Source: an uncultured Anaerolineales bacterium (GTDB taxonomy: Bacteria > Planctomycetota > Phycisphaerae > FEN-1346). From it: 64,000 nt of DNA. The DNA is taken from positions 1,503-65,502 of the forward strand of contig CAZIJC010000003.1 in assembly GCA_964539385.1 (NCBI GenBank), in the 5' to 3' direction. The position numbers and the translations under genes are program-made. Below, piece by piece: positions 11,127-55,258 of this stretch; the first letter of the stretch is position 1; each line of letters begins with the position of its first letter. A model generated the notes under the pieces. It was not told the origin of the DNA and searched no databases. It saw nothing but the letters and a program-made list of their open reading frames with translations.

Positions 11127-11143
11127 ACGTCCGATAATGAGTG
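11127..11143. repeat. prophage left attachment core: 17-bp direct repeat (XerC-arm + central region of a dif-like site)
   Basis: ACGTCCGATAATGAGTG identical to 55231-55247; sits at the left edge of the phage gene block. Confidence 0.6.
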
Positions 11144-11189
11144 CGGGGAGGTGCCGAAAAACGGACCTATGGCGGGGAGTCGATAGGTG

Positions 11190-11400
11190 GGTGGCGGGCC
11201 TTGCGCGCGCAGGCAGGGAAGGGCGGGAGTATCGAACCCCCACGCCGAGTTGGAGTCTGACCCCGACCGGCCAATGGTGATGACGGTGGGAATCTGACAA
11301 ACGCGGGGGTTCGATTTCGCCGAAATCTGGTGCATGGTTTCAGACTCCAACTCTATGCGACACCCCCAGGTTAGGCGGCTCCCAAAAGCCGCGTCAAGAA
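11190..11400. other. structured non-coding region with interleaved inverted repeats and a tRNA T-arm-like motif
   Basis: ATCGAACCCCC (11231) / GGGGGTTCGAT (11314) and GAGTTGGAGTCTGA (11247) / TCAGACTCCAACTC (11340); minus strand carries GGGGGTTCGATACTCCC; no ORF with coding character. Confidence 0.3.
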
Positions 11401-11402
11401 AA

Positions 11403-11445
11403 AAACGAAAAAAAATCCGCCGGCCTTGCTTTCGCCGGGTTTTTC
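11403..11445. terminator. bidirectional intrinsic terminator
   Basis: A8-CCGGC-(loop)-GCCGG-GTTTTT hairpin flanked by T-runs on both strands. Confidence 0.4.
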
Positions 11446-11475
11446 AGCCATAATGACATAGAAATCCTGGCATTC

Positions 11476-11898
11476 GTGGGAGTCGGAATCATGGGTAACT
11501 TGCGCATGCGTTTGCCGATGTTGTTGTCTCTGGCGGCCCTGGTGTCCGCGGTCGTGGCCCTGATCCTGGCGATTGGTGCCTGCCGGCAGCCGGCGGCCGA
11601 GGTGGTGGTTGTTGACGAGGCCGGCCGTGTTCGCGTGCGGCTCGGCGTCCTTGGCGACAACACCATTGGTCTCGGCCTGTATGACGCCAACGGGCGCCGG
11701 CGCGGTGCCTTTCATTTTGTTGAGGCCCTTGACGCGGCCAGTCTCGAGGTAAAAGGCACCGGCGCCCCGTACTCGCCTACCGTCACGGTGGCCACGGTGG
11801 GGACGGCCATGGTTTCCCTGGGCGACGAGGATGGCCGGTTCTTCGGTTTGACTCCCAACGGCCCGCAGACCTTTCTCAATCCCTTCCCGCCCCCTTAG
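11476..11898 (+). CDS. hypothetical secreted protein (prophage, attL-proximal)
   Basis: Signal-peptide-like N-terminus MRLPMLLSLAALVSAVVALILAIGAC; 140 aa. Confidence 0.45.
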   Translation: MGVGIMGNLRMRLPMLLSLAALVSAVVALILAIGACRQPAAEVVVVDEAGRVRVRLGVLGDNTIGLGLYDANGRRRGAFHFVEALDAASLEVKGTGAPYSPTVTVATVGTAMVSLGDEDGRFFGLTPNGPQTFLNPFPPP

Positions 11899-12115
11899 AC
11901 GGCGGGCGCCCTCTGGTCAGGGCGATCCCCCGTGCCGCTGCCGCGGCTCGCACGGCCTTCGCCGAGACCGACCGCCCAAATCGACGGCTGAGGTTGGCCG
12001 CGATCGCCGGGGCCTGGTAGCCGGCCGAGGCCATTCGCTTGAGCACACTGCGCGGCCGACCGCGCCGGCCAGTTGCCGTAAATTGAATCGCATCCCACCA
12101 GTTGACTGCCACCAT
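11876..12115 (-). CDS. small basic protein, paralog A of 12389-12607
   Basis: MVAVNWWDAIQFTATGRRGRP...AVRAAAAARGI is about 50% identical to the neighbouring 72-aa gene; internal ATG at 12115. Confidence 0.5.
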   Translation of the reverse strand: MVAVNWWDAIQFTATGRRGRPRSVLKRMASAGYQAPAIAANLSRRFGRSVSAKAVRAAAAARGIALTRGRPPSKGAGRD

Positions 12116-12301
12116 AGGTTCCCATTCGGCCAGGCCGTTGGCACAAATCAAGGAAAAAGGGCCAGGATGGCGCAGGACGGCCGCGAGCCCCTGGGGGATG
12201 GCCCACCATAGCCTCGCTTCACTCCGCGTGGCGTGGCGCAAGCCTGGTGGCCCAGGGCAGGGCGTGGCGCGGGGGTCACGGCCATCCTGGCGGGAGCGCG
12301 C

Positions 12302-12343
12302 AAAAAAAGGGCCGGCCCCAGGGGTGGTGGCCTGGGGCCGGCG
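12302..12343 (-). terminator. intrinsic terminator (minus strand)
   Basis: GGGCCGGCCCCA / TGGGGCCGGC stem followed on minus strand by T7. Confidence 0.5.
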
Positions 12344-12388
12344 GTTACCGTGCCGCGACAAGCGGCATCGGCCATGGTGGTCTGACGG

Positions 12389-12607
12389 TTAGGTGTGGGG
12401 CCGGCCGCGCTTCAGCGTGATCTTCGCGCGGGCGGCGGCCTTGCGCACGGCCAGGGCCGTGACCGTTCGGCCAAAGTGCTCCGTTAGGATGGCCGCTATC
12501 TCCGGCGCCTGCCGGCCGGCCTTGGCCATTTGCCGCAGCATGGTGACCGGCCGCCCCGGTCGGCCCTTTGTCAATTGTATGGTATTCCACCAGTTGATTG
12601 CTGCCAT
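12389..12607 (-). CDS. small basic protein, paralog B
   Basis: MAAINWWNTIQLTKGRPGRP...AVRKAAARAKI; tandem paralog of 11876-12115. Confidence 0.5.
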   Translation of the reverse strand: MAAINWWNTIQLTKGRPGRPVTMLRQMAKAGRQAPEIAAILTEHFGRTVTALAVRKAAARAKITLKRGRPHT

Positions 12608-12619
12608 GGGATTGCCCTT

Positions 12620-12889
12620 TCACGTGGTGACCACGTCGGCGTGGTCACGGATAAACCTGGCCGAGTCGCCCAGGTAGGCGGCCATGCCCTTGCCGTCGAG
12701 TGGGGTGAGGGCCTTGAGCACCGCTTTCCAGGGGCCGGCCAGGCCCTTGCGTTTGCCGACCGGGCGTACCGTGATGCCGCTGCCATTGACCTTGACCAGC
12801 ACGTTATACCGCTCGCCCTCAAGGTACATCGACAGGTGTAGCACGGCCGTGCCGTCTGGTTTGTTGGTGACCTCAATGGCCATGGTCAT
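12620..12889 (-). CDS. hypothetical phage protein
   Basis: 89-aa ORF; ATGA overlap with upstream gene stop. Confidence 0.45.
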   Translation of the reverse strand: MTMAIEVTNKPDGTAVLHLSMYLEGERYNVLVKVNGSGITVRPVGKRKGLAGPWKAVLKALTPLDGKGMAAYLGDSARFIRDHADVVTT

Positions 12890-13326
12890 TCCCCCCCGGC
12901 CGCGTGTGCATCCTGGGCCTTGATGATTTGCTGCACGTGCTCCCGCACGGTATCGACCTTGACCACGAAACCCTGCCCCGACTCCGGGGCCAGGCGCTCG
13001 GCCTTATACGTCCTGTAGGCGCACTCCGCGGCCTTACCGCAGCACGCCCAACATATCGACAAGGCCAAATCCGCCGGGCCACTGCCGGCGTAGCCGAATT
13101 GAAACCCGGTGGGACTGTGCCGCACCACGTGGGGCAGGGGGACCTTTTTGCCCACGGCGTCCATCACCTCGGCCTTGACCGTCCCGTCGGTCTGCCGCTG
13201 CACGATGATGAGATTGTTGCCTGCCAGGCCAAGGCCGGCCGCGCAGCACGTCGAGCAAAAACCCGTATCGCTGTATACCAGGCTCAAGCGCCGGGTGTGC
13301 TTTCTGCATAGGCTGCATTGTGCCAT
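12886..13326 (-). CDS. hypothetical phage protein with N-terminal Cys cluster
   Basis: CSLCRK...CSTCC zinc-ribbon-like N-terminus, conserved-looking HSPTGFQFGYAGSGPADLALSI core. Confidence 0.5.
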   Translation of the reverse strand: MAQCSLCRKHTRRLSLVYSDTGFCSTCCAAGLGLAGNNLIIVQRQTDGTVKAEVMDAVGKKVPLPHVVRHSPTGFQFGYAGSGPADLALSICWACCGKAAECAYRTYKAERLAPESGQGFVVKVDTVREHVQQIIKAQDAHAAGGE

Positions 13327-13422
13327 TGTGCACCACCTTTTTGTTGAGGGTTTCCCCTAGCACCGGCAGGGCGCCCATGACCGCCACGAGCCATCCCGCC
13401 GGCACCAGGTGAGAGGCTGTGT

Positions 13423-13833
13423 TTACGCTTCCGCTGTCGGCCCCGGCAAATGCTTGAAGTGTTCGACCACCGTTTCGACGTAATCCGCACACCGGGCGGC
13501 GCCGGCGATCTCATCGCCCCGCATTCGCAACGGTTGTGTGTGCCGCAGCAACACGGTGGCCTCTTGTAGTGCTTTGTCGATGCGTTCTAACTGTGCCATG
13601 ATGCGCTGGCCGCCCTTGATCCCCCTGGCCGCTGCTGTTTCGCGCTCGACAAAGGCAGACACGGCCGCCTCGGCGCCCCAGGGCGACGAATCGACCAGCG
13701 TGTGCGCGGGCACCGTCGATTCGGTGCCTGGCAGGAGTTGCGCATCATCCCGGTTTGCCCGCCATCCCTTGCCTTTCGCGTCCAGCGCGACGGTCCACTC
13801 TTGCCCCCACACTTTTATGCGGAGCGTGCTCAT
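13423..13833 (-). CDS. hypothetical phage protein
   Basis: Start at internal ATG 13833 directly preceded by the repeated leader element (RBS AAAGGTGG). Confidence 0.45.
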   Translation of the reverse strand: MSTLRIKVWGQEWTVALDAKGKGWRANRDDAQLLPGTESTVPAHTLVDSSPWGAEAAVSAFVERETAAARGIKGGQRIMAQLERIDKALQEATVLLRHTQPLRMRGDEIAGAARCADYVETVVEHFKHLPGPTAEA

Positions 13834-13906
13834 AAGACACCACCTTTCTACATGGCCACCATTGGCCGGCCGGCAGGTCCGGCCCCAGGGCCAGGCCCGC
13901 CGAGGC
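13834..13906 (-). repeat. repeated intergenic leader element R1, copy 1 (truncated)
   Basis: CCACCACCTTTC..GGCCACCATTGGCCGGCCGGCAGGTCCGG...CCAGGCCCGCC shared with copies at 14815 and 15273. Confidence 0.7.
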
Positions 13907-14814
13907 TCATTCCTCAAGGTTATCTACCAGGTCGGACACGGCCGCCCAATTGTCGGCCACGCCTTGCAGGTGCTTGCGGGCCTCGGCTTCGCGGTCGAGC
14001 CCTTGCTCCCATAGGGTCTTATCGCGCTCGGCCTTGACCGCTTTGGTGATAAGGTCATCGAGCGTGGCCGGCTCAAGGGCGTCCAACTCCCAGGAATCCT
14101 CACCGTACTCGACCACGTAGCCCTCATATCGAGAATCGGTCACCTTTGCGGGGTTGGGCGGCGGTTGGTACTCGTCAACCTGGTCCATGTTCAAGGCCAG
14201 GCGGGTGAGGCGCACCGGCTCATCGAGAAATAGGTCGAGCCGGTCGCGTATATCCCTGGTCATGTCGATGCCGCTTGGGTCATGGTCGCCCAGGTGCAGC
14301 AACAAGATGCCCTGCCCCCGGCCCTGGTGCTGCTGAAACCGCCGGATGGCGGCGTCCCACATTTCGCTTTGACTCATGTAGCCGCGGCACGCCATGTAAT
14401 CGACGCGGAGACGCTTGGCAATGGTGTCCAGCACGCCGGCCAGGGCTTCCTTTTCGATCCAGACCTCGTTGGCTGCGCGGCCCACAGGTCGAGCCGGAAC
14501 TGGTCGGCCACCGCCTCGATCATGCTTTCGGGCGACCGCCAGGTCGGATAGGCTTCAAGGTTGCGCGTGCGGTCCTCAATCGCATCCCAATCCACCAGGC
14601 CGGCCAGGCGGGCGTCGGACAGGATGGCCCCCAGGCGCTTGTAGTTCCGCTGCACGTTCGGCATGAGACCGCGGGCCACGAATTGGTAATAGAGTTGCCG
14701 CAAGGTGAGGCGGTAACCCTGCCCGCGGTATTCCTCGATGATGGCGTTTGCCCGATTGATGGTCTCGAGTGTCGCCGGCTTGAAATCCTTGTCCACGTAT
14801 CGGATGCGCGGCAT
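13907..14814 (-). pseudogene. Topo VI-A/Spo11-like (mini-A type) protein: 5Y-CAP (LRQLYYQF) + Toprim (GDHDPSG), split by a frameshift near 14470-14485
   Basis: N-part ORF 14374-14814 (real ATG at 14814) and C-part ORF 13907-14485 are consecutive halves in frames offset by one nucleotide; no slippery heptamer. Confidence 0.5.
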
Positions 14815-14903
14815 ATCCCACCACCTTTCCTGGCCACCATTGGCCTGCCGGCAGGTCTGGCCCCCACGGCCAGGCCCGCCGGCGGGCCAATGGCCCGCCT
14901 GAA
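14815..14903 (-). repeat. repeated intergenic leader element R1, copy 2
   Basis: Full copy including GGGCCAATGGCCCGCC inverted half. Confidence 0.7.
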
Positions 14904-15272
14904 TCATTCGCCCATGGCCGCCCGGTTGCCCGCCTCTTGCAGTATGGCCGCTTGGGTGATTTCTTCGCAGGTAAGAACGTAGTGCGGCGCCGGCCCCCAC
15001 ACCAGGTCACCCCAATAGAGCGCCTCATGCAGCCGGACCTCGGCTTTGCGCTGGCCCGTCGGCTCATAGACGTAGACCACCCGGTCACGCCTTGGTTCGA
15101 TGCCGGCGTCACGGATGGCCGCCAGCGCCTGCCAAAGCGCTTCTGTGAGTGACCGGCCTTCGCCCGGCTCGCCGTCGCCAAGCCACTGGCCATTGACCAC
15201 CTGGGCCAACCACCCGGCGGCCTGCATTGTGCCGTACATGCAGACCTCTGCAACCACCTTGGCCTTTCGCAT
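14904..15272 (-). CDS. hypothetical phage early protein (first gene of leftward operon)
   Basis: Internal ATG at 15272 preceded by R1 copy 3; 123 aa. Confidence 0.45.
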   Translation of the reverse strand: MRKAKVVAEVCMYGTMQAAGWLAQVVNGQWLGDGEPGEGRSLTEALWQALAAIRDAGIEPRRDRVVYVYEPTGQRKAEVRLHEALYWGDLVWGPAPHYVLTCEEITQAAILQEAGNRAAMGE

Positions 15273-15360
15273 AACCCACCACCTTTCCTGGCCACCATTG
15301 GCCGGCCGGCAGGTCCGGTGATCCCCAGGCCCGCCGGCGGGCCAATGCCCGCCTGCCTCT
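15273..15360 (-). repeat. repeated intergenic leader element R1, copy 3
   Basis: Near-identical to copy 2. Confidence 0.7.
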
Positions 15361-15459
15361 GCCGCATCGGTCGGGCGCCCCAAGGGCCGGGCCTACCGCC
15401 CTGCGCCGGTTGTCATTTACGCCCGACTATTCACTTGCCAAAGCACTACTGCATTATAC

Positions 15460-15511
15460 CCCATTTGGGGCATTTGTCAAGCGCCCGGCCAGAAAAAATG
15501 TCCCAAATGGG
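15460..15511. promoter_or_regulatory. 16-bp inverted repeat (candidate operator) in divergent early promoter region
   Basis: CCCATTTGGGGCATTT ... AAAATGTCCCAAATGGG, 15/16 complementary, 20-bp spacer; lies in the AT-richer 500-bp gap between leftward and rightward operons. Confidence 0.45.
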
Positions 15512-15873
15512 TTGTTTATTTTTGCCCTTTGCGGCGCGGAATCAGTCTTTTTGCGAGATTTCTTGCTTGACCGCAGAATAAGAACGCGGTAGGTGTCGTG
15601 TCGATGACGCGGATGGCCGAACCGGCGGCGTGACAAGGCCAACACGTGGTGCAGGACCCCAGGCCCTACCCTACGCCCACGCCACCCCCCGATGCTGCCT
15701 TGGCACAAGTCCTTAGTATACCTCTACTTAGCGTGTGCGGGTCCTTGGGAGGCTCTTTCGAGCAATCGGGTGCAGAGTACCCGCTAAAAAAGCGCACCAT
15801 TGTTTTAGTCGCTGCTGCGTCAATTCCTTTGCCCCCAGGTGAACGGCTATAGTTATCGAAACGAGGCAATGTC

Positions 15874-16557
15874 ATGGCCAATCGCAAGCGCTTCAAACCG
15901 CCACGCCCCACCGCCAGGCCGCCGCGGGCGCCCTACATTGAGGCCGGTATCCGGTGGATGGCCGTGCCCGTCGAAACCGTGCATCCGGACCCCGAAAACG
16001 CGCGGCACCATACGCCGGCCAATCTGGCCGCGATACGCGGCAGCCTCACCGGCGCCCGGCAGCAAACCCCCATTGTGGTTGACCGGGACGGGATGATTCT
16101 CAAGGGCAACGGCACCTGGCACGCGGCCAAGGCCCTGGGGTGGGATTACATCGCCGTAAGCCTGACCACTCTCGAGGGCGCCGATGCGCGGGCCTACAGC
16201 CTGGCCGACAATCGCACGGCCGAGTTGGCCGAGTGGGATGAGACGCGCTTGGCCGTGCAACTGGCCGAGTTGCGGGCCGAGGGCAGCATCGACCTGACCA
16301 CCCTGGGATGGTCCGACGAGGAAACCCAAGAGGTGCTCAACCTGGCCGCCGGCCTGGGGCATGATACCAACCGGGGACCCGATATGCTTATCGACCGGCG
16401 CGACGCCGGCCCCTTGGTCAAGGCGGTGTTTGCGCCGTCGGCCCTGGCCCTGGTCGAGCAAGCCCTGGGCATGACCGGCCTGGTTAACCGGGGCAAGGCC
16501 CTTGAGGCCATTGCCCGGTTTTACATCGAGGCGGTGACCGATGCCGGGACAGACTAA
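15874..16557 (+). CDS. ParB-like nuclease domain protein
   Basis: ParB N-domain motifs (ENARHHTP, KGNGTWHAAKALG). Confidence 0.75.
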   Translation: MANRKRFKPPRPTARPPRAPYIEAGIRWMAVPVETVHPDPENARHHTPANLAAIRGSLTGARQQTPIVVDRDGMILKGNGTWHAAKALGWDYIAVSLTTLEGADARAYSLADNRTAELAEWDETRLAVQLAELRAEGSIDLTTLGWSDEETQEVLNLAAGLGHDTNRGPDMLIDRRDAGPLVKAVFAPSALALVEQALGMTGLVNRGKALEAIARFYIEAVTDAGTD

Positions 16558-17164
16558 AAAACAACATACCACCTTCGCCCGCAAGATGGCCCTGCGCCGC
16601 CGGATACTGGCCGAGGTCCGCTCTCGCGGCGAGCCGGTCATCATCGAAACGCACGGCGGGTGGGGCCGGCTCTGGCAGGCCCTCTATGCCGACGTGCCCG
16701 CCGGCGTGGTCTTTGAGCACAACCGCTTGCGGGCCGAGCACCTTGCCAGGCAGCGGCCCACGTGGGCGGTCTATGAAACCGATTGCGTGCGCGCCCTGGC
16801 CGCGGGGGTGGGCAGCCACCTGGTGCCCAACCTCATCGACCTTGATCCGCACGGTAGCCCTTGGGAAGCGCTTGAGGCCGCCCTGGTCGGCCTCGCCGAC
16901 CTGGCCGACCCTCTGTGGGTGGTGGCCACCGACGGCCTCCGCGAGAAACTGCGCATCACCGGGGCGTGGCCCCTGCATGCGCTCAAGGAGTTTGTCGGGG
17001 AGTTTGGGAACCGCCTGGCCGACGTGTATCTTGATGTTTGCAAGGTCAAGGTCGGACGCCTGGCGGCGCTGCGCCGGTATACCCTCGATGAGTGGCGGGG
17101 GTACTACTGTGGGGCGGGCGGGGCCATGACGCATTGGGCCGCACGCCTGGTCAAAACAGGGTAG
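16541..17164 (+). CDS. class-I SAM methyltransferase-fold protein, divergent (motif IV DPHG instead of DPPY/F)
   Basis: ETHGGWG (motif I-like), VVFEHN, LIDLDPHGSP laid out as in RsmD/N6-MTase-like enzymes; resembles the TcmP partner family. Confidence 0.4.
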   Translation: MPGQTKKQHTTFARKMALRRRILAEVRSRGEPVIIETHGGWGRLWQALYADVPAGVVFEHNRLRAEHLARQRPTWAVYETDCVRALAAGVGSHLVPNLIDLDPHGSPWEALEAALVGLADLADPLWVVATDGLREKLRITGAWPLHALKEFVGEFGNRLADVYLDVCKVKVGRLAALRRYTLDEWRGYYCGAGGAMTHWAARLVKTG

Positions 17165-17954
17165 GCGCGGGGGCCGGAAACGGAAGGGCGGGGAACTCTT
17201 GCACCACCTCACCATCGAGCAAGTGACCGGCGCTGTCGTGCCTGGGGCCGCCCCATTGCTTGAAGAAAAACGGCACGCCCGCGGCCCTGCAAAGCGCCCG
17301 GATTTCGGTCACCCAATGCTGGCGGTCCTGCCGGCAACCCCAATGCCCGCCGCGATCCCCCAGGGGCACGGCCATGCCGCGGGCGTCCCTGATGGCCGGG
17401 TCTTTGAGGTGGGGGCCGGACTCCCCGGCCACTATCACCCACCCGATGCCCTCAAGCGGCAGGTCGGGCATGGCCGACAGCATCGGCTCGGCCGACACAA
17501 ACCGCAGGCCGCACTCGACGTTGCGCAGGGCGGTGATCCGCTTGTAGTATTGGGGATTTTCGACCGTGACGCCGAGCATCACGTTAGCCGGCACGTCGCG
17601 CCGCTGCCAGTAGGCCAGCATTCCCGCGTGGCGTTTGGTGAGTATCTGAAAGACGTGGCGCGGGCAGGCCCGGATAACCTCAAGCACTTGGTCGCGCATG
17701 CCGTCGCCCGCCTGGTCAAGAAAGAAATCACTCATGGAGCAAATAAAAAACATGCCCGGCTTTTTGACCGTCCGAGGCACGTTCATCTTGTGCAACTTGG
17801 GGGTGAATCCGAAGCCATTGGGAAATGCCGGCGTGCCGGCCATGCTCTCGGCCTGCCTCTTGGCGTAGCAGTACCGGCAGCCCTCACTCACCGGGGCGCC
17901 GCCGGTCCAGGGGTTCCACGTGTGATTGGTCCAAGAGATTTTGGTATTCAGCAT
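17151..17954 (-). CDS. phage Gp37/Gp68 family protein (DUF5131)
   Basis: CSMSDFF, QILTKR, FFKQWGG family motifs; convergent to and overlapping the methyltransferase-fold gene by 14 nt. Confidence 0.6.
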   Translation of the reverse strand: MLNTKISWTNHTWNPWTGGAPVSEGCRYCYAKRQAESMAGTPAFPNGFGFTPKLHKMNVPRTVKKPGMFFICSMSDFFLDQAGDGMRDQVLEVIRACPRHVFQILTKRHAGMLAYWQRRDVPANVMLGVTVENPQYYKRITALRNVECGLRFVSAEPMLSAMPDLPLEGIGWVIVAGESGPHLKDPAIRDARGMAVPLGDRGGHWGCRQDRQHWVTEIRALCRAAGVPFFFKQWGGPRHDSAGHLLDGEVVQEFPALPFPAPAPTLF

Positions 17955-18023
17955 CGGACACCCGTTTGCCGCCACGGATTCATTTGCGGGCAGGGATAAT
18001 ACCGCGGACCGCGCAGTTGACAA

Positions 18024-20642: not shown

Positions 20643-20646
20643 GCGA

Positions 20647-44871: not shown

Positions 44872-44875
44872 GGCC

Positions 44876-47107: not shown

Positions 47108-47325
47108 TCCTCGGCCCCTTCCGAAATCAGCCCCTCAACATCGGCCTCGTGCCCCGCGATTTGAGCAATCAGGTCGCGGCATTGGCAGGCGGCCTCGTCC
47201 ACGTCGATCTGGCCGTTGGCGGCCGCCAGGCTGATGGCCCACCCGGCCAGGCCGTTCGCGTGGTCCTCAAGCGTTCTTGCGAGCCTTGACCTTTCCGCCG
47301 CGTCTTGCCCGTTTGGGTTTCCCAT
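47104..47325 (-). CDS. hypothetical phage protein
   Basis: 73 aa, acidic. Confidence 0.35.
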   Translation of the reverse strand: MGNPNGQDAAERSRLARTLEDHANGLAGWAISLAAANGQIDVDEAACQCRDLIAQIAGHEADVEGLISEGAEE

Positions 47326-49291
47326 CGGTCTTGCCCTTTCGCTTGGCCTTGGTCCTGGCCGGCTTGGCCGGTTTTACCGGGACCGGCTTTTTCTCGAAAT
47401 CCGACTGCCTCGGCCGGGCCGGCAATTTGATGCCGAGCCGGTCGGCCAGGGCCATCTTGACCAGGCCGTGCATGTTTCCGACCAGGCGTTTGTAGCCTTT
47501 CTCATGGAGTAGGGCGGCCAGGCCGCCAAGGCCCTGTGCTCCGCAGGTCCCCACGGCCACCGCGTCGAGAAAGCCGAGGAACTTTCCAATGGTGCGCCTG
47601 ACTGTGCTGTCGGTGGTGGCCACGCCCCACAACTTGGCGCCCTGGGCGGTCTCGCGTGCCAGGTAGAGGGCGGCCAGGGTCATGGGGTCTCGCGGCAGTT
47701 TGGCCAGCACCGCTTTGGTGGCCTGCTCTTTCCACCGCAAATTGGCCATGTAGAACTTGCCGGCCGGCGTCTTTTCCCAGGCGCCCCCCCCGGCCTCGGT
47801 CTTGGCCTTCGCCTTGGCCGCCGGCTGCAACTGTCTCACCACCGGCCCGACCTTGACCCCGGCCGGCACGTGGACGGCCACGCCTTTGGCGGTCGGCTCG
47901 GCCTTGGCCGCCCGCGCCGCCTTGACCGCCGCCTCGACGGCCTGGTCGGCAAACGTGCTCTTGCGTTTGTAGCACTTGGGGTCAAGGCACTTGCCGCGGG
48001 CCAGGGTTTCGGTGTCCATGGTTGCAAAGAGGGCTGCCGCGTTCTCGGAGTTGTGCGGGCATTCGATGCAGGGCGGGCGGCCGGCAAAGGGTGCATCGAG
48101 GCGCCACCGCACGCCGTACAGGCTGCGGAGCATGTTGGCCACAAGGCGCCGGAGCCGGTCGATGGCCATGCCGCCGGTGCCGTCCTCACGCCTGGCCGCC
48201 GTCGTGGCCACGCTGCCTTGCTCGCGGGCGTCAACCAGTTTGGCGACCTCGTGGGCGTGGGCCAGCGGCAGCCGGCCGTCGATGACCAGGTTGGCCGCCT
48301 TGACGCCCAGGCGCATGAGCACGGTGCGGCCGCGCATCCACGCCACGGACTGGCCGAGCAAAGAGGCCACCTCGCGGATGGCTTCGCGCGGTATCTCGAC
48401 CGCGGCCGCGGCGGTGATCCGCCGGCCGAACTTGGCCTGGCCGGTGATGGCCTTGAGCATATTGCAGACGGCCAGCGCTTCCTCGACCGGGTTCAACTCG
48501 CCGCGGTGCAGATTCTCGATGGCCGCCAGTTGCGCTTGCCAGCCTTCCGAGCCGCCGTCAAAGACCACCGCCGGCACGGTCGTGAGGCCGGCCAGAGCGG
48601 CGGCCAGCACCCGGCGCCGGCCGTAGATGACCCGGTAAGGCGTCGGGTCACCCGCTGGCTTGGTGCGCATCAGGCCCACCGGCTCAAGCACGCCGACTTG
48701 GCGGATGCTCTCGGCCAGGGCCGTCAAGCCCTCGGTCTTGCCGGTCGGCTCAAGCCGGTGGTCCTGGGTGGGGCGTTCGATTTCTCCCAGGTCCACCAGC
48801 ATGAGACCCTCGCGGTGCAGCGTTTCGACGGCCGCCAGGACCGGGGCCGGCCGGAACTTGGGGACCCCCGCCGGCCGCCTGGCCCGAAACTTGGCCCGGT
48901 ACCTGTCGGGGTGCTTGGCCGAGCCGAACACCGTTGCCAATTCATCGAGGCCCCAGGCCAGCGCCTCTTGCTCCGTCTCGGCCGTCTCGGCGCGAATGAC
49001 GCCCGCCGCGCACGTGCTCCCGACGTCCGGGCCGGCGGCCTCGATACCCCAATGCCACCGGCCGGCCGGGGCCTCGGCCAGAAACACCTTGGCCACGACC
49101 TTGCCCCAGGACTTGGGCAGGGCGACCTTGACCGTCTTGAACTTGTCGAATACGCCGGCCGCGGTGAGGTGGTGTGCTTTCTGGCAGTCCGCGCACACCA
49201 CAAACCCGCTGTCGCGCTCTATCATTGCATGTATATCGCCGCATACCCGGCAGGCCGGACGCGGCGCCGCTGATGGTTTGGGCTTGCTCAT
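47267..49291 (-). CDS. ParB/Srx-domain DNA-binding protein with N-terminal zinc ribbon (674 aa)
   Basis: CRVCGD...CADC N-terminus; ParB N-domain (FRPAPVLAAVETLH...EPVGLMR...YRVIYGRRRVLAA); second CIECPH..C cluster; Lys-rich tail. Confidence 0.65.
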   Translation of the reverse strand: MSKPKPSAAPRPACRVCGDIHAMIERDSGFVVCADCQKAHHLTAAGVFDKFKTVKVALPKSWGKVVAKVFLAEAPAGRWHWGIEAAGPDVGSTCAAGVIRAETAETEQEALAWGLDELATVFGSAKHPDRYRAKFRARRPAGVPKFRPAPVLAAVETLHREGLMLVDLGEIERPTQDHRLEPTGKTEGLTALAESIRQVGVLEPVGLMRTKPAGDPTPYRVIYGRRRVLAAALAGLTTVPAVVFDGGSEGWQAQLAAIENLHRGELNPVEEALAVCNMLKAITGQAKFGRRITAAAAVEIPREAIREVASLLGQSVAWMRGRTVLMRLGVKAANLVIDGRLPLAHAHEVAKLVDAREQGSVATTAARREDGTGGMAIDRLRRLVANMLRSLYGVRWRLDAPFAGRPPCIECPHNSENAAALFATMDTETLARGKCLDPKCYKRKSTFADQAVEAAVKAARAAKAEPTAKGVAVHVPAGVKVGPVVRQLQPAAKAKAKTEAGGGAWEKTPAGKFYMANLRWKEQATKAVLAKLPRDPMTLAALYLARETAQGAKLWGVATTDSTVRRTIGKFLGFLDAVAVGTCGAQGLGGLAALLHEKGYKRLVGNMHGLVKMALADRLGIKLPARPRQSDFEKKPVPVKPAKPARTKAKRKGKTDGKPKRARRGGKVKARKNA

Positions 49292-49335
49292 CGTGGAACC
49301 CTTTCAGTTGGGGACCGACCTGGTGGCCGGCCCGG

Positions 49336-49602
49336 CTATGCCTTTGGCTTGCTGGCCGGGATGACCGGCATGTCATAGCCGGCGCCGCGCAGCATGGCCA
49401 GTTGCTCTTTGGTGGCATCGACCACCCCCAGGTTGTCCTTGTACGCCTGGGACGGGGTAATCCACCGGCGGGCGTTGGCCTGGTCGAAATCCACCACCAG
49501 CATGGCCCGGCCGCCGCCGGCCGCCGGCACCACCTCGGCCGATTCGATGACCTCACCTGTCTCAAACAGTACCGCCTTGGGGTCCTGCGCCATCAGTTTC
49601 AT
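49336..49602 (-). CDS. hypothetical phage protein
   Basis: Internal ATG 49602 overlaps Dam stop (ATGA). Confidence 0.4.
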   Translation of the reverse strand: MKLMAQDPKAVLFETGEVIESAEVVPAAGGGRAMLVVDFDQANARRWITPSQAYKDNLGVVDATKEQLAMLRGAGYDMPVIPASKPKA

Positions 49603-50780
49603 GCCTCGCCCTTTCCGGAATCGCCGGCGGCATTGCCGGCGGGTGTATCTTCGGTGGGAAACAAGGGGCCGGCCGTGGCCGACAGGCAATGCGGTGAAAA
49701 GTAGATGCGTTCCCGGTTACGATTGGTCCGGGCGGCCCCGTCGCCCTTGCAGCCGTATCCCCCTTGTGCCGTCCACTTGTACAGCGTCCAATTCGTCGGC
49801 ATCGCGTGCTCTCCCTCGTAGCCGCAAAGCGCAATCCGCATCCGGGGGTCGTCGCCGTGCTCGACCGCCCACGCGCGCGCGGCATCGGCGAGGGCCTGGT
49901 CGTCGCATCGGTACAGGCTGGTGCGTCGTGTTGCCTCTTTGCCATAGGGCGGGTCCAAAAACACCCCGGTCAACCCGGTGCACGTGGTCTGCGCCCGGCC
50001 GAGAATCGAATCCCATTGACCGCAATGCACCCGGACCATGCGCAGCCGGTCACAGAGCGTCCCCATCCATGCACACAAGGCAGCCAGGTGGCCCACCGAT
50101 GCCCCCAGGCCCGCGGGCGCGCCGGCTCCGAGTCCGCGCCGGCGGTTGACCCCCCGGCCACCGTCCCCGCAGTGCAGGCGCTGCCGATTGACCCCGCGGT
50201 GTGCCCGGCCGGTCTGCGGTACCTGTCTGCTGACACCGCGGCCGCCCCGCGTTTTCTTTTTCGTGACACCTTTCGGGCCCTTGCCTGTCTTGCGAAGCGT
50301 GGACGTGCCCCCCTCATTCACCACGTGCCACGGCCCCACCCCGGAGCAAAAGCCGGAACCAATCCAACAACTCATACCCCAGGCCCAGGCACCGGCTATC
50401 TCCGCATCGTAATAGGTACGGTCTGCCTCGATGCGCGCCTGCAATCCGCCAGAGACCTCGACCAACCACAAATGAATGGCGGTGAGGTCGGCGGTGCTTG
50501 GCGGCCGGTCGGCCGCCGCGGCCACTCCGTCCGGATCCGCCCGGACGGCCCGCCAGAAATTGACCACCAGGCCATCGAGGTCGTTCACGGTCTCGATGCC
50601 CGGTGCACCGGGCCGGGCGAGCAACACCGCGCCGGATCCAAAGAACGGTTCGACGTAATTGGGCACGTCGCCGAAGCGCCGCCAGACCTCGGCCGCCGCC
50701 CTGCGCTTGCTCCCGAAATACGGGAAGGGCGCTTGCAGGGCAGGGGGCGCCGCGGGCCGCTTGTGTGAACGCTTGGCCAT
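49599..50780 (-). CDS. DNA adenine methyltransferase (Dam/D12 class) with large internal insertion
   Basis: FPYFGSKRR...EPFFGSGAV (motif I) and VFLDPPY (motif IV); roughly 150-aa Gly/Arg-rich insertion between them. Confidence 0.75.
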   Translation of the reverse strand: MAKRSHKRPAAPPALQAPFPYFGSKRRAAAEVWRRFGDVPNYVEPFFGSGAVLLARPGAPGIETVNDLDGLVVNFWRAVRADPDGVAAAADRPPSTADLTAIHLWLVEVSGGLQARIEADRTYYDAEIAGAWAWGMSCWIGSGFCSGVGPWHVVNEGGTSTLRKTGKGPKGVTKKKTRGGRGVSRQVPQTGRAHRGVNRQRLHCGDGGRGVNRRRGLGAGAPAGLGASVGHLAALCAWMGTLCDRLRMVRVHCGQWDSILGRAQTTCTGLTGVFLDPPYGKEATRRTSLYRCDDQALADAARAWAVEHGDDPRMRIALCGYEGEHAMPTNWTLYKWTAQGGYGCKGDGAARTNRNRERIYFSPHCLSATAGPLFPTEDTPAGNAAGDSGKGEA

Positions 50781-50786
50781 TGGTCC

Positions 50787-51374
50787 TCATTCCCCTTGGG
50801 TGTCGCCGGCGCCGCCATCCTCTTGGCCGTCTGGTGCCGGGTCCGCTGCCAGCGGGGCCAGGGCAAACCATCCCACGTGCGTCGGCTCGGCCAGGTTGCG
50901 GTCGGCCAGGACCCCCAGGCTTTCCCTGGCCGCATTCATGGTGATGCCCAGGGCCGCCGCCACGTCGCCCGGCCCAAGGCCGCCCAGGTGTTTGCTGCGT
51001 TTGGCGTCCAACAGCATCCACGTAAGTTTGTCGATATTTGGAAGGTCTCTGCTGTGGAGCACCGCCGCCTGGACGGCGGCCCATTTGAGATTGGCGTCGT
51101 GCAGTTTCTGGCTCAAACCCACCAGGCGGCCGAATCGCTGGCGCGCGTTGTGGACCTGGTTAGCCAGGCGAATCAGCGCCGTGGCATCCCACCACCTGGT
51201 GGTCCGGGTAACTTTCACCGCGTCGGCCATGGCGTCGTATTCGGCCGGGAGTCCGGATGCCGTTACAATGGTCTGGTGCTCGACCCCGCAACCGATTACC
51301 ATCGTCTGGTCATCCACCGGGAAGGTTTCCGCCGGCCTGTCGATGACGTCCGCGTTCTGCGTGTCGTGCGTCAT
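50787..51374 (-). CDS. hypothetical phage protein
   Basis: 195 aa, ATGA-coupled to initiator gene. Confidence 0.45.
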   Translation of the reverse strand: MTHDTQNADVIDRPAETFPVDDQTMVIGCGVEHQTIVTASGLPAEYDAMADAVKVTRTTRWWDATALIRLANQVHNARQRFGRLVGLSQKLHDANLKWAAVQAAVLHSRDLPNIDKLTWMLLDAKRSKHLGGLGPGDVAAALGITMNAARESLGVLADRNLAEPTHVGWFALAPLAADPAPDGQEDGGAGDTQGE

Positions 51375-52276
51375 TTTTGTCCACCGCCTTTCGTACTGAA
51401 TGACCAGGCATCGAGTTGGTGGGCCTCACGCAACTCAAGAAACCCCCGGTCACCCAGGTCGATGACCAGGCAGTCGTTTTTGTAAACCATCGTGCCGAGG
51501 AGGCCGTCGGCCTTGCGCCGGGCAGAGACCAAGCCATGGGCCTTGAGGTCGGCGAGTCTGCGGTACAGGGCCTCTTGCTGCTGAAGATGCCAGGTGGCGG
51601 CAAACCGGAGCACGTCGGCCGTAAGGTTTTGGTGGCCCACGTCGTGCAGCGGTTTGGCGTCGATGTAGGCTGCCAGGACGTGCTCGGCGTAGGTACCGCG
51701 TGATAGGTCGCCGATGATCCGGGCCACCACGTTTTCACGGCCTTGGCGTGGGCGTTGCCTTTCGTGGAAAAGAAGCGCGAGCGACTGCCACCGCTGCATG
51801 GTGGGAGTTGTCGGGCGGGCAGGGGCACTCTTCCCTGTTGATATTCCGTGTTCTGATTCCGGTGTGTTTTCCACACCGTTTGGGGGTATGGTTTTCATAC
51901 CGTTTGCCCCATGATTTTCATACCGTTTCGGCGGATTAAAGGGTCCGCTTTCCACACCCTTTGCACCGGCCGGCTCGACGGTGGTTTCCTGGGGATAAGC
52001 CACCCAATAGTGGTGCGTGCGCCGCCGGCCGCCGCGCGACCACTCGACCACCAACAGGCCAAGGCCGACCAGGCGGTCGATGGCCTGCCGCGCCGCCTGT
52101 TTGCCGATGCCCAGGTCGGCCGCCATCGACTCGACGCCGGGCCATGCCGCCTCACCCTCGGCGCCCTGGCGATAGGCCACCAAGGCCCACACCAACTTGG
52201 CCGAGGCCGGCAGGTCACGGCGCCGGGCGAGCCACAAGGGCACCGCGAGCCAGTTGGTCGGGTCGTCTCGGCTCAT
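51371..52276 (-). CDS. replication initiator (lambda O-like) with N-terminal winged-helix and internal iterons
   Basis: N-terminal HTH-like LPASAKLVWALVAY...IGKQAARQAIDRLVGLGLL; four direct repeats inside the ORF. Confidence 0.55.
   Translation of the reverse strand: MSRDDPTNWLAVPLWLARRRDLPASAKLVWALVAYRQGAEGEAAWPGVESMAADLGIGKQAARQAIDRLVGLGLLVVEWSRGGRRRTHHYWVAYPQETTVEPAGAKGVESGPFNPPKRYENHGANGMKTIPPNGVENTPESEHGISTGKSAPARPTTPTMQRWQSLALLFHERQRPRQGRENVVARIIGDLSRGTYAEHVLAAYIDAKPLHDVGHQNLTADVLRFAATWHLQQQEALYRRLADLKAHGLVSARRKADGLLGTMVYKNDCLVIDLGDRGFLELREAHQLDAWSFSTKGGGQK
51867..51963. repeat. iteron array (candidate phage origin of replication)
   Basis: Four copies of TTT(T/C)CA(C/T)ACC(G/C)TTTG at 51867, 51891, 51914, 51948. 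Confidence 0.6.
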
Positions 52277-52665
52277 TGAGAAAACCTGGGCTGTTCACGC
52301 TTGCGCCCGGTCCGGCAGTAATCACAAATCAGGCCCCCAAGGATTTTCTTTTGCTCGGCCGGGTCTCGCAGGGCCTTTACGCTGACCACGCGGGGAGGTT
52401 GAACCGGCCTGGTGCGCGGGAATAGTGGCGCCCAACAGGTGCCAACGGTGCCATCCTGCAATGTCCGCATGGCCTGGCAGCAGTGGGTGACCGGGAGTAA
52501 CAGGCCCTTGCCGTCCACCCGCACCCAATACTGCTCGTCGGTGGTGAGCATCCACCACACGCCCCGCCATTTCTTCAACCATTGTGACCTGTGATAGCGG
52601 GTCACCTGGGGCAGCGGCCACGCCTCTTGCTGCGCGTCCTGCCCACACGCCGCAGATTCCGCCAA
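52273..52665 (-). CDS. hypothetical phage protein (Cys-containing)
   Basis: 130 aa, ATGA-coupled to initiator. Confidence 0.4.
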   Translation of the reverse strand: MAESAACGQDAQQEAWPLPQVTRYHRSQWLKKWRGVWWMLTTDEQYWVRVDGKGLLLPVTHCCQAMRTLQDGTVGTCWAPLFPRTRPVQPPRVVSVKALRDPAEQKKILGGLICDYCRTGRKREQPRFSQ

Positions 52666-52850
52666 GGAACCACCACCTTTGCGCCGCCGTCGAGTTGCAC
52701 CGTGCAGTTGCGGGGACCCGGCCCACGGCCGCGCACCAGGACCGTCCCCGTCTCGCCGTGATGAGGAAAGGCATCAGGGAGCCGCGCCACCTTGGCCATG
52801 CTGTATCGCAAGACCACCTTGGTACCAGGCTTGAACATGAGGGGCCTCAA
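52602..52850 (-). CDS. hypothetical small protein
   Basis: 82 aa. Confidence 0.3.
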   Translation of the reverse strand: MRPLMFKPGTKVVLRYSMAKVARLPDAFPHHGETGTVLVRGRGPGPRNCTVQLDGGAKVVVPWRNLRRVGRTRSKRRGRCPR

Positions 52851-53107
52851 TTCCGCCGCGGGTCCGGGGCATCGGGCAGCCGGCGCACTTCCTGCCCGGC
52901 CGCAAGGCGGTCGGCCGCCTTGCGCATGGCGGAGATCGTATCGTCCCGGTGGCAGGTCGAGATATATTGGGTGGCTGCCGGGTCATTGAACACCAGCAAG
53001 ACAAAGAGCGCGGTCTCATCGAGCACGGCCAGTTGGGCCTTGACGGCCTCGGCGCAGCACGTCATCAAAGCGGCCAGTTGTGGTTCGGTCATATCCTGTA
53101 TTCGCAT
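52847..53107 (-). CDS. hypothetical small protein
   Basis: Internal ATG MRIQDMTEPQ..., 86 aa. Confidence 0.35.
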   Translation of the reverse strand: MRIQDMTEPQLAALMTCCAEAVKAQLAVLDETALFVLLVFNDPAATQYISTCHRDDTISAMRKAADRLAAGQEVRRLPDAPDPRRN

Positions 53108-53123
53108 GGGGGGACCTTTCCGG

Positions 53124-53546
53124 TTAGAGGCCCTGCACAATCCGGCCCTCGATGGTCGGCGTGAGGGGGACCTTGACGGAGAAGATGCCGAGCCGCCCCT
53201 TGACGCGGTGTTGCTCCGACGCGGGCAAGAGCGTGGCATCGGCACACAACCATGCTTGCGCCCTGGGATAGACGGTGCAGCACGCGGCGGTCTCATCGTG
53301 CTCCGTCATGGGCCGGCAGCCGGTGACCTTGACCATGCCGACCAGGCGGCCGCGTGGGCCGCGGCCGAAACCGGCGTGCGGCCGCAAGCCCATGGCCGCC
53401 TCATCGACCTTGAGACTGGCCGCGATGAGCAACCATCCGCGGTGCCTCGTGGGCCAGGTCCGGGTTTCAATCGTCTTGATCCCGGACACCAGCATGTTGG
53501 CCCACGGTTGTTTCATGGACAGGCAGGGCAGGGTGATTAGTTCCAT
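53124..53546 (-). CDS. ASCH domain protein
   Basis: MELITLPCLSMKQPWANMLVSGIKTIETRTW typical ASCH/PUA-like start. Confidence 0.6.
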   Translation of the reverse strand: MELITLPCLSMKQPWANMLVSGIKTIETRTWPTRHRGWLLIAASLKVDEAAMGLRPHAGFGRGPRGRLVGMVKVTGCRPMTEHDETAACCTVYPRAQAWLCADATLLPASEQHRVKGRLGIFSVKVPLTPTIEGRIVQGL

Positions 53547-53654
53547 AGCGGGACCCTTCCAGTTGGGCGGGGGCGGGACGGCCGGACAACCGCCCGCGCT
53601 GGGGGCAAGGAGCATCAACCCCGGAGCGCGTTTGACCGCCCCCATATTCAGTTG

Positions 53655-53903
53655 TCAACACAAGCCAGGGTCCTGGGCGGCCGGCCTGGCGTCGGCCGGC
53701 TTGCCGTCGGCCAAGGCCAGGTAGCGGTCGGTCTTGAGCAACACCTGCCTTGGGCCGGGTTGCACCTCGGCCTCGCTGATACTCGCGCTGCCGCGCGCGA
53801 CCGCCGGCCCTGGGACCGCGATGACCTTGGGGCCGGTTCGGACTTTGACCTCGTAGTTGCCCGGCGCTTCACGCATGGCCTGCATCAATTCGTCAACCGT
53901 CAT
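53655..53903 (-). CDS. hypothetical small protein
   Basis: 82 aa, ATGA-coupled. Confidence 0.35.
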   Translation of the reverse strand: MTVDELMQAMREAPGNYEVKVRTGPKVIAVPGPAVARGSASISEAEVQPGPRQVLLKTDRYLALADGKPADARPAAQDPGLC

Positions 53904-54431
53904 GGCGGCCCTTTCCCCGGCACGATACCCTCAAAAAGTGTGGGGGTTTCGGCCGGCATTGGTTTTGCCCTGCGCCGCGGCTTTGTGCGCGCCTCAAGCA
54001 ACGCATCGACCTGTCTGTCGGTGAGGCCGGTGATGACACGGTCCGTAAGGGCCTCGATGCGATTCTCCGTCCTGGGACCGGGGGGCAGGCCCACCGCGAT
54101 GACCGCGGCGCCGAGGGCATTGTCGGCCAAGGCCGTGCCGATGGCTTTGGCCAGGGGCAGGCCGCACAGATCCACGTGCTGCCATTGCCCCCGGCCCTCG
54201 TGGTGCAGGAATACCTGGCGGATGCCGAGCCGGCGGGCCGTCGCGCGCAGGCGGTCGGCGTCGGTGTCCAACAGGTGTGCCCATGGTCCAGGCCAGGCCC
54301 GCCGGAAACAATCGGGGGCAGTTGAGGGGATATGATTGGCGCGCCACACGTGCAACGCCTGCCGCCCGCGGCGTGCCGCCTCGAGCGCCGCCGTCATGGC
54401 CGTGCAGTCAAAGCGCTGGTCATACAGGTCC
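53900..54431 (-). CDS. hypothetical protein (DUF4031-like)
   Basis: Internal ATG MDLYDQRF...; weak resemblance to DUF4031. Confidence 0.35.
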
Positions 54432-54538
54432 ATGCCGGACCTCGGCCAAACTGGTGCGGGCGCCGGATGGAGGGCACCAACCCGACGCCCGCTATTCCGA
54501 CTCCGGTGCAGGGACCGCCCCCGCAACCGGGATGCCGG

Positions 54539-54580
54539 CAAAAAAGGACGGGCGGGGCGGCGACGGCTCCCCGCCCGCTC
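54539..54580 (-). terminator. intrinsic terminator (minus strand)
   Basis: GGGCGGGG / CCCCGCCC stem then T7 on minus strand. Confidence 0.5.
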
Positions 54581-54637
54581 GTACCGATGACGAGTACCGC
54601 CAGGACCGCCCTGGCCGCCGTACCCGTTGCGGTGGGC

Positions 54638-54686
54638 AAAAAAGAGACGGAAGACCCGCGACTGGTTTCGCAGGGCCTTCCGTCTC
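54638..54686 (-). terminator. intrinsic terminator (minus strand)
   Basis: GAGACGGAAG / CTTCCGTCTC 10-bp stem then T6 on minus strand, 9 nt after stop of 54695 gene. Confidence 0.55.
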
Positions 54687-54694
54687 AACATCTG

Positions 54695-54967
54695 TTAGGC
54701 TGCCGGTTTGAGCGGATGTCGGAAAGGCCGGCTGGCCGGCGGCCGGCTCGGCGCGAGCCGCACCGGCGCCGGTTGCCTGCTGCAAAGTTCTCGGTGATAG
54801 TCGCCAACCGTGTCGCGGGCCTGATCCAGGGCCGTCTCGCGGGCCATACACCGTGGACAGACCAGGGCTACCAGCGCAGTTCCGTATGGCGCCGAGGTAC
54901 GCCAAGTGCCGGGCAGGACGTGTTCGTGCCAGTGGCCGCAGACGTGTTTGAGATTTTTTGCCACCAT
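54695..54967 (-). CDS. small Cys/His-rich protein, own transcription unit next to attR
   Basis: CGHWHEH...CPRC; followed by two terminators; last prophage gene. Confidence 0.4.
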   Translation of the reverse strand: MVAKNLKHVCGHWHEHVLPGTWRTSAPYGTALVALVCPRCMARETALDQARDTVGDYHRELCSRQPAPVRLAPSRPPASRPFRHPLKPAA

Positions 54968-55230
54968 CGTTGCTCCTCCTATGATGCGGCGAAGGCGCTT
55001 GGAGGGGCTGTGGGTCGTGGCATGGCGTGGTAGGCGCGCACGGCCTACCGGCAAGCACGAGAAACCGCAAACTTGAAACGGCCTGACATGACAGCCAGCG
55101 CGTGGGGCGTGAATGTAAAAGAAATGAGTTTGCTGCGCGGCGTACTACTTTAAGTCTACGGATATTCGCGCGACAGTCAAGCCGAACGGTCGATTTGGTT
55201 GCGAGGCCCAGGGCCGGCGTGGCCCCGCAA

Positions 55231-55258
55231 ACGTCCGATAATGAGTGTTATGTTGCGC
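55231..55258. other. dif-like site / prophage right attachment site
   Basis: ACGTCCGATAA-TGAGTG-TTATGTTGCGC: 11-6-11 layout with ATAA and TTATG inner arms as in dif sites; first 17 bp repeated at 11127. Confidence 0.5.

Follow-up and report, generated by a model that had tools for sequence, protein, structure and literature searches.

A tailed prophage between two copies of a 17-bp repeat

We analyzed a 64,000-nucleotide (nt) stretch of contig CAZIJC010000003.1, referred to below as the window, in which a 44.1-kb tailed (Caudoviricetes-type) prophage is placed exactly in dif, the chromosome dimer resolution site of its host. Two JGI metagenome contigs and several Logan contigs match the window at 100% identity. 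The host is a Phycisphaerae planctomycete: the closest relatives of its ABC transporter ATPase, at 74-89% identity, come from Phycisphaerae metagenome-assembled genomes (MAGs; Planctomycetota). An earlier annotation of the window (the original prediction) had placed a prophage between two copies of a direct repeat, with rpsU and ABC transporter genes on the left and FHA and pil genes on the right. This separation of host genes from the phage block was confirmed (Table 1), and beyond the FHA gene the right flank continues with pilM/N/O and then pilB/T/C. The G+C content, about 0.63-0.69 across the window, is close to the 68% background that had been given.

The interior carries phage genes throughout, among them the three markers by which we recognized Caudoviricetes, the large terminase subunit (TerL), the portal and the major head protein. 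A complete head module, tail genes, a replication module and early genes had been predicted. We found the head, replication and early genes as expected. The tail genes, by comparison, are poorly annotated: the only tail-fiber matches (phrog_892, phrog_28766) are weak, the large proteins encoded downstream of the head genes are unannotated, and the tail module is presumed from position and size. The gene matching phrog_6247 is split by a 1-nt frameshift, with CCAACGAGG where CCAAACGAGG would restore the frame. Since independent JGI and Logan assemblies contain the same split, it represents either a real mutation or a recoding site. When 22 kb of the prophage was compared by megablast with 50,697 phage records (INPHARED), no match was obtained. 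The closest TerL relatives are at most 42% identical, and the examined parts of their contigs contain no dif-like site. The ParB-like protein has no relatives in IMG/VR and three in the protein collection.

The repeat, ACGTCCGATAATGAGTG, is 17 bp long. Even with two mismatches allowed, it was matched only at 11127 and 55231, both times on the plus strand, exactly as the original prediction had stated. Identity is limited to the 17 bp: the preceding base differs between the copies (T versus A), and so does the following one (C versus T). Counting one copy of the 17-mer, the phage genome comprises 44,104 bp. A chance match had been judged unlikely, and this judgment agreed with a shuffle control, in which 0 of 100 dinucleotide-preserving shuffles contained a match.

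The earlier annotation had also proposed a search for an empty site. Such a site is present in the ENA metagenome contig L164, which shows 99.3% nt identity to window positions 1429-11139 and 55231-60879 and encodes an FHA protein 98% identical to that of the window. There is a 13-bp overlap between the two alignments, and across the junction the sequence is CCCAAACCCT-ACGTCCGATAA-TGTATG-TTATGTTGCGC-GGAGGCTACG, with a single 28-bp site and no phage DNA. Because both flanks are joined at one site in L164, the 44,104 bp between the repeats are an insertion and the repeats are its ends, as had been supposed. The one point that favors a chance repeat, or a product of homologous recombination unrelated to element ends, is the shortness of the 17-mer. 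Given the shuffle result and an empty site that breaks exactly at the repeat, we regard this explanation as refuted.

The phage-free gene order in related MAGs, pilC-pilT-pilB-pilO-pilN-pilM-FHA-rpsU-ABC-...-hisS, likewise brings the two window flanks together, and the empty arrangement recurs in six further related loci (L002, L003, L006, L168, L169 and L170). No phage genes were found at the site in L001-L003, L005, L006, L008, L009, L033, L164 and L168-L170.

Table 1. Features of the prophage locus (window positions) and composite sites of two comparison contigs
Feature	Coordinates	Strand	Description
Host left flank	9464..10653	-	ABC transporter ATPase 9464-10393; rpsU (ribosomal protein S21) 10456-10653
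Left copy of the 17-bp repeat	11127..11143	+	XerC-type arm ACGTCCGATAA and center TGAGTG; arm assigned by comparison with the 28-mers of relatives and the published dif layout (PMC9226527)
attL, pseudo-dif	11127..11154	+	host XerC arm, center, then phage 11-mer CGGGGAGGTGC in place of the XerD arm
Prophage body	11144..55230		missing in the conspecific strain L164; phage genes throughout
Phage-derived half of composite attP	11144..11168	+	CGGGGAGGTGC, CGA, degenerate inverted XerC-arm-like AAAACGGACCT; layout as in L171, L172 and L176
phrog_6247 "DNA topoisomerase" gene	13907..15000	-	Spo11/topoisomerase VI-A-like RQLYYQF and GDHDPSG Toprim motifs; 1-nt frameshift near 14465
Terminase	18017..20642	+	small subunit TerS 18017-18688 (phrog_57); gpA-type TerL 18624/18666-20642 (PF05876/PF20454)
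Head module: portal, protease	21331..24497	+	lambda-family portal 21331-22887 (PF05136); head maturation protease 22884-24497 (phrog_3244)
Head module: decoration, major head protein	25157..26642	+	possible decoration protein 25157-25555; major head protein 25665-26642 (phrog_1005)
Presumed tail module	28238..42561	+	weak tail-fiber matches 28238-29344; 819-aa Laminin_G_3 protein 36353-38812; 1249-aa protein 38812-42561
Early/replication block	47267..52276	-	ParB_N protein 47267-49225; D12 methyltransferase 49599-50780; O-like replication initiator 51371-52276
Small Cys-His-Cys-Cys protein, 90 aa	54695..54967	-	gene closest to attR within the prophage; accessory-factor candidate for the attP module
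Phage flank beside XerC arm	55216..55230	+	about 15 nt conserved with L166; reverse complement TTGCGGGGCCACGC versus TTGGCAGGGGCCATGC
attR, complete 28-bp dif	55231..55258	+	ACGTCCGATAA TGAGTG TTATGTTGCGC
Right copy of the 17-bp repeat	55231..55247	+	phage-derived XerC arm and center by the crossover model
Host right flank	55532..57884		FHA-domain protein 55532-56080 (-); pilM 56742-57884 (+)
L176 site A			ACGTCCGATAA TGCATG CGGCGCCTCGC CCG TTATCGGACTT
L176 site B			ACGTCCGATAA TCAGTC CGGGGTGTGGC CTG TTATCGGACCT
L174 site			AGGTCCCAGAA TATATG CGAAGTCCCGC CGA AAAACGGACCT

The insertion site as the predicted dif of the host

Each of 14 related loci contains one 28-mer of the form ACGTCCGATAA-N6-TTATGTTGCGC, with one site per 20-kb locus. 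It lies between FHA and rpsU or, in L007 (contig DATLBA010000122.1) and L166 (contig JAUVZF010000001.1), beside a prophage. Over 15 sites (the window and the 14 loci), the arms are invariant except at three positions, namely two at the outer end of the XerC arm and one, position 10, in the XerD arm. The hexamer between them varies at positions 2, 3, 4 and 6. The site has an 11-6-11 layout and partial inverted symmetry (GATAA...TTATG), and its inner part, ATAA-N6-TTATGTT, agrees with the canonical dif pattern (PMC9226527, PMC12715192). Published dif sites consist of an 11-bp XerC arm, a 6-bp center and an 11-bp XerD arm (PMC9226527). On the strength of this layout, of near-invariant arms around a variable center and of the match to the published pattern, the site was assigned as the dif of the lineage. 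We conclude that the repeat corresponds to the XerC arm and central hexamer of this predicted dif. It ends exactly at the border between the center and the XerD arm, as a Xer crossover would leave it. In an earlier genome-wide survey, dif prediction failed for Planctomycetes (PMC3025954). In one related locus (L008, 9449-9476), dif is inverted relative to the flanking FHA and rpsU genes.

A shorter motif, GTCCGATAA-N6-TTATGTTGC, was present in 41 IMG/VR contigs (L082-L122); by our own estimate, made without a tool, chance alone would give roughly two for a pattern with 18 fixed bases. Related contigs of low G+C form a cluster in this set, several of them only 5-9 kb long and hence microvirus-sized, and microviruses have already been proposed to integrate at dif (PMC3091885). 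No integrase was detected within 3-5 kb of the site in those motif contigs that were examined. Other members of the set have high G+C and lengths of 17-50 kb (L100, L101 with a T4-type terminase N-domain, L103, L119), and one 47-kb contig has two sites (L089, L119). Separately, a 43-kb IMG/VR contig (L081, 1008-1036) carries a dif-like site with a 7-nt spacer, ACGTCCGATAA TAATGAA TTATGTTGC, about 1 kb from the contig end.

Junctions, reconstructed attP and the central hexamer

The two prophage junctions are unequal. The XerD arm TTATGTTGCGC is present once in the window, at attR, where it completes the 28-bp dif, and attL carries the phage 11-mer instead. From both junctions we reconstructed an attP of 42 bp, ACGTCCGATAA-TGAGTG-CGGGGAGGTGC-CGA-AAAACGGACCT, with the wider junction GGCGTGGCCCCGCAA-ACGTCCGATAATGAGTG-CGGGGAGGTGCCGAAAAACGGACC. 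Its XerC arm is an 11/11 copy of the host arm, and a second, inverted XerC-like arm lies 20 bp from the first. The corresponding attB would consist of CCCAAACCCT followed by ACGTCCGATAATGAGTG, or by its counterpart with the center TGTATG, and then TTATGTTGCGCGGAGG. A scan of a metagenome collection with the 17-mer gave 27 unrelated chance matches and no attP or attB junction; this collection also missed the prophage-bearing JGI contigs. The exact attL pattern had no match in IMG/VR.

Sites without adjoining phage genes fit the pattern T-R-Y-A-T-G/C. In contrast, the prophage-adjoining dif sites in the geometry of the window (TGAGTG, TCATTG) do not. Judged by these sequences, the central hexamer seems to be carried along by the phage, just as TLCphi converts difA to dif1 (PMC9226527).

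Between 11231 and 11353, 90-210 bp inside attL, two perfect or near-perfect 14-nt inverted repeats with interleaved arms were noted (11231-44/11302-15 and 11247-60/11340-53). The tRNA-like look of 11229-11353, which resembles a T-arm, was not confirmed: tRNA (ARAGORN) and Rfam scans found nothing, including a permissive scan of the attL region.

Search for a recombinase gene

Genes supported by G+C content at third codon positions (GC3), together with open reading frames (ORFs) in the gaps, were all searched against Pfam, and larger or key genes also against PHROGs or NCBIfam. These searches of the prophage genes revealed no integrase, resolvase, large serine recombinase, DDE transposase or IS110-type transposase domain. 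When the terminal 2.4 kb of the prophage at either end were scanned against Pfam in six frames, DUF6166 and ASCH were the only matches. When E. coli XerC, XerD and lambda Int were used as phmmer queries against six-frame ORFs of at least 40 aa, there was no match in the window at E <= 1; the same queries did detect a recombinase in the unrelated locus L076. Precomputed JGI Pfam assignments contained no recombinase either, and NCBIfam returned only a weak glycosylase match (44317-44961) for ten att-proximal proteins. In the GC3-based gene map, no unassigned stretch of integrase length is left except 42.6-43.8 kb. At the sensitivity of profile searches, an integrase, recombinase or transposase encoded by the element appears to be absent.

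We considered whether this is a decaying prophage that formerly used an ordinary integrase, since lost, at an attB overlapping dif, the repeat being the old core site. One gene is frameshifted in all assemblies and no excised form was seen, both of which fit this idea. However, no remnant of an integrase was detected in the six-frame scans of the ends or anywhere in the window, and the genes beside att are packed too closely for a 1-kb gene to have been lost there. The structural and replication modules are otherwise intact. Moreover, relatives with the same attP module, including contig L176 (see below), have no integrase in the 10-20 kb around it. Loss of an integrase is thus a very improbable explanation.

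A small zinc-type gene accompanies composite attP sites

The prophages in the window and in L166 share DNA only beside the phage-derived XerC arm, where a flank of about 15 nt is followed by 280 nt at 75% identity. This stretch encodes the small Cys-His-Cys-Cys (zinc-type) protein, which is 73% identical between the two, with differences mostly at third codon positions. Among 1.84 billion representative proteins, 17 relatives were found, nearly all of 60-104 aa. C10, C37 and C40 are invariant in them and H12 is near-invariant, giving the pattern C-x-H ... C-x2-C. The protein matched no Pfam or NCBIfam family, and nothing was retrieved when IMG/VR was scanned with a two-sequence alignment. A single-sequence AlphaFold model reached a pLDDT of 55.7 and was hence not used.

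In L171, L172, L174 and L176, the gene for the zinc-type relative lies 170-480 nt from a composite site. This site consists of a XerC-type arm (11 nt), a center (6 nt), an 11-mer, 3 nt and an inverted XerC-type arm (11 nt), and has no XerD arm. L174 and the window match at 18 of 18 positions over GCCGAAAAACGGACCTAT. L172 and L174 are ENA contigs of 42.9 kb and 39.4 kb, with very large proteins upstream, where a tail module would lie, and no integrase was found in the 15-20 kb examined around their sites. L176 has two tandem 42-bp composite sites upstream of the zinc-type gene (3699-3813; 73 bp apart), with phage genes on both sides, Mu Gam on one and early genes on the other. Because phage genes flank both sides, L176 shows an unintegrated attP and confirms that the XerD arm is absent. 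The center TGCATG in L176 is identical to the dif center of several Phycisphaerae relatives. By its association with these sites, the zinc-type protein is the best candidate for a factor that licenses or directs the Xer reaction.

Beside the apparently empty dif of L006, positions 8759-8845 give a weak match (E = 0.21, motif PGTWR) to the N terminus of the zinc-type protein. The intergenic region is about 600 bp longer there than in other relatives. This match may be a relic of an earlier occupant.

Other occupants of the same dif

L166 is from a related species, with 91-95% nt identity in the pil genes. Next to its FHA gene comes a full dif, whose center TCATTG is unusual, and then a different prophage, which encodes an ERF recombinase and a LexA-like repressor and has no integrase within 9.5 kb. 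The geometry is that of attR in the window. In L007, part of which is called viral by IMG/VR (L091), dif is followed by genes for an amidase, DUF1064, ParB, a D12 methyltransferase and an HTH_36 initiator. Two of the genes are distant homologs of window genes, and no integrase was found within 9.4 kb. At L007 9361-9414, an inverted pseudo-site, AGGTCCGATAA TCCGTT GGGACCCCCCA, adjoins the full dif without a gap, on the side of the prophage. The 11-mer of this pseudo-site is similar to the L171 11-mer when the latter is read on the opposite strand (AGGACCCCACA), and the arrangement is not what a simple crossover within the hexamer would give.

L166 also encodes a 272-aa protein (11548-12366, plus strand) that is homologous to a 312-aa protein of L119 (5127-6062, minus strand; 28% identity, E = 6e-23). 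Both have a weak match to Transposase_20 (IS110-type), lie near dif-like sites in unrelated phage-like contigs and have no homolog in the window.

These proteins bear on the question of whether the phage has its own, unrecognized recombinase, either the zinc-type protein or another ORF without known relatives, that targets the XerC half of dif while host Xer is uninvolved. Besides them, such an enzyme could be suggested by the lack of a family assignment for most early genes, by the strict linkage of the small protein to attP and by an attP without a XerD arm but with an unusual second XerC-like arm in inverted orientation. On the other side, the conserved part of the zinc-type protein comprises only about 65 aa with a single metal site, and the L166/L119 protein is missing from the window. 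The crossover is exactly at the Xer cutting position, and the phage arm agrees with the host XerC arm at 11/11 bases. Near the ends, none of the frames showed a catalytic recombinase domain. We consider a phage-encoded recombinase unlikely, though clearly less so than the loss of an integrase.

Further features of the prophage

Two families of 50-80-nt direct repeats were observed, one at 13833-13882, 14811-14895 and 15269-15350 and the other at 44288-44333, 44860-44943 and 45505-45556. Members of both are located just upstream of successive minus-strand early genes and look like leader, ribosome-binding-site or regulatory elements. The minus-strand gene at 44317-44961 encodes an HhH protein (phrog_11575) with a weak N-glycosylase/DNA lyase match. 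It is unrelated to the IS110-like proteins of L166 and L119. Endonuclease III assists CTXphi integration (PMC3442271); a link of the HhH protein to integration would be pure speculation.

DISCUSSION

The original prediction overlooked that the repeat makes up two-thirds of the host dif, that the prophage has no integrase and that 2 of the 17 bases differ from the conspecific empty site. As far as can be tested, the element looks in every respect like an IMEX, an integrative mobile element that exploits Xer. It is inserted exactly in dif and bounded by dif-like direct repeats, one junction is a complete dif, and no recombinase was found; its attP appears to be of the TLC type. With no such enzyme of its own, the prophage probably borrows that of its host. 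We therefore favor, with a probability of roughly 0.7, a tailed phage that integrates through host XerCD, that is, an IMEX with an attP closest to that of TLCphi. The evidence is entirely computational, and it is from this that we infer Xer dependence.

In the mechanism that we envisage, the cos-type phage genome would circularize, and attP would pair with dif bound by host XerC and XerD. Strand exchange would take place at the hexamer borders. The resulting attR (phage XerC arm, center, host XerD arm) would stay a working dif and, being complete, would preserve dimer resolution. The other product, attL (host XerC arm, center, phage 11-mer), would be a crippled site; because it has no XerD arm, FtsK-driven loss of the prophage should be disfavored. 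The same protection against FtsK-activated excision has reportedly been argued for the degenerate difB of the gonococcal genetic island. Excision upon induction would need a phage factor, for which the attP-linked zinc-type protein is a candidate, and the inverted XerC-like arm could serve as an accessory binding site.

Several observations weigh against Xer-dependent integration. First, attP has no recognizable XerD arm to place a second Xer monomer. Second, the center is TGAGTG at both junctions, as compared with TGTATG in the conspecific empty site L164, a difference of two bases. One reciprocal crossover would have left the host center at one junction, and an extra assumption is needed: we suppose that either the recipient dif was already of the phage type, e.g., after an earlier integration and excision, or repair or conversion followed. 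Third, DUF3653, the domain of XafT, was not matched in any Pfam scan, and many ORFs without known function could hide a new type of recombinase. Fourth, contigs from five samples with the phage contained integrated junctions only and no excised form, and the frameshifted phrog_6247 gene may indicate that the prophage is decaying. Finally, the GC skew found within 10 kb of the site, weak and inconsistent and with no clear switch, is too little to indicate a terminus, and host xerC, xerD and ftsK are not within the window.

Among known systems, the closest likeness is to TLCphi, a satellite of Vibrio cholerae (PMC6744903, PMC9226527). Both lack an integrase and integrate at dif, and both have an attP with a good XerC arm and center and a degenerate XerD arm. 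In both, here by the crossover model, a new complete dif arises on one side, with XerC arm and center from the element, so that the host dif is rewritten. TLCphi carries a small accessory protein; here, an unrelated small zinc-type protein is at the attP-proximal position. Unlike TLCphi, a small filamentous-phage satellite, the present element is 44 kb long and encodes terminase, portal and major head protein. It also differs in its second inverted XerC-like arm, its planctomycete host and the lack of a detected XafT/DUF3653 homolog. Without XafT, it should not be filed as a member of the TLC family.

The gonococcal genetic island of Dominguez et al. 2011 is reportedly another large double-stranded DNA element at dif, 57 kb in size. 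At one end it is said to have a consensus dif and at the other a copy whose XerD arm is defective, which presumably stabilizes the island. However, this is a type IV secretion island and not a virus, and no reintegration in the form of a circular phage genome is known for it. CTXphi and VGJphi resemble our element in using host XerCD at dif without an integrase, and the attP region of CTXphi has two inverted dif-like sites. In contrast to it, they are single-stranded DNA inoviruses of 7-8 kb with recognizable XerD arms in attP, and CTXphi integrates as a folded single strand. Bacteroidetes microvirus prophages and PM2-like/double-jelly-roll prophages also combine dif-like direct repeats with the lack of a recombinase, and there, as here, a lysogeny module is common to unrelated phage groups (PMC3091885, PMC12715192, 10.64898/2026.02.19.706829). 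They are, however, all small and tailless and have other accessory genes; the 2025 paper speaks of "non-tailed IMEXs". With lambda-type phages, the prophage shares a gpA terminase, a lambda-family portal, an O-like replication initiator and a short direct repeat at its ends. Those phages have a tyrosine integrase and an excisionase beside attP and an arbitrary attB, whereas the present element lacks an integrase and has dif as its attB.

The general assumption is that tailed phages lysogenize by their own integrase or transposase or as plasmids. To our knowledge, the only elements described as using the host dimer-resolution machinery are small viruses without tails, satellites of these viruses and a single genomic island. 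Our literature searches returned no report of a tailed IMEX, although one may still have been published. The IMEX viruses in the literature that we searched are filamentous, microvirus-type or double-jelly-roll only, and a tailed one would be new.

A broader and more tentative proposal, which we hold to be possible but rather doubtful, is that a portable cassette lets large tailed phages of Planctomycetota, and possibly of other phyla, lysogenize without an integrase via an undescribed Xer pathway. The cassette would consist of a composite attP, in which two inverted XerC-type arms stand 20 bp apart and a XerD arm is lacking, and of an adjacent Cys-His-Cys-Cys gene of about 60-100 codons. Passage of the phage would rewrite the central hexamer of the host dif.

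The arms defined here possibly provide the first usable dif consensus for a planctomycete lineage, and the zinc-type protein is a concrete candidate for a new Xer-controlling factor. If integration through host XerCD is true, such elements will be misjudged by any prophage finder that depends on an integrase. dif would then be a hotspot for large prophages, with three different occupants at this locus, and the dif sequence of a host would be a record of past phage visits.

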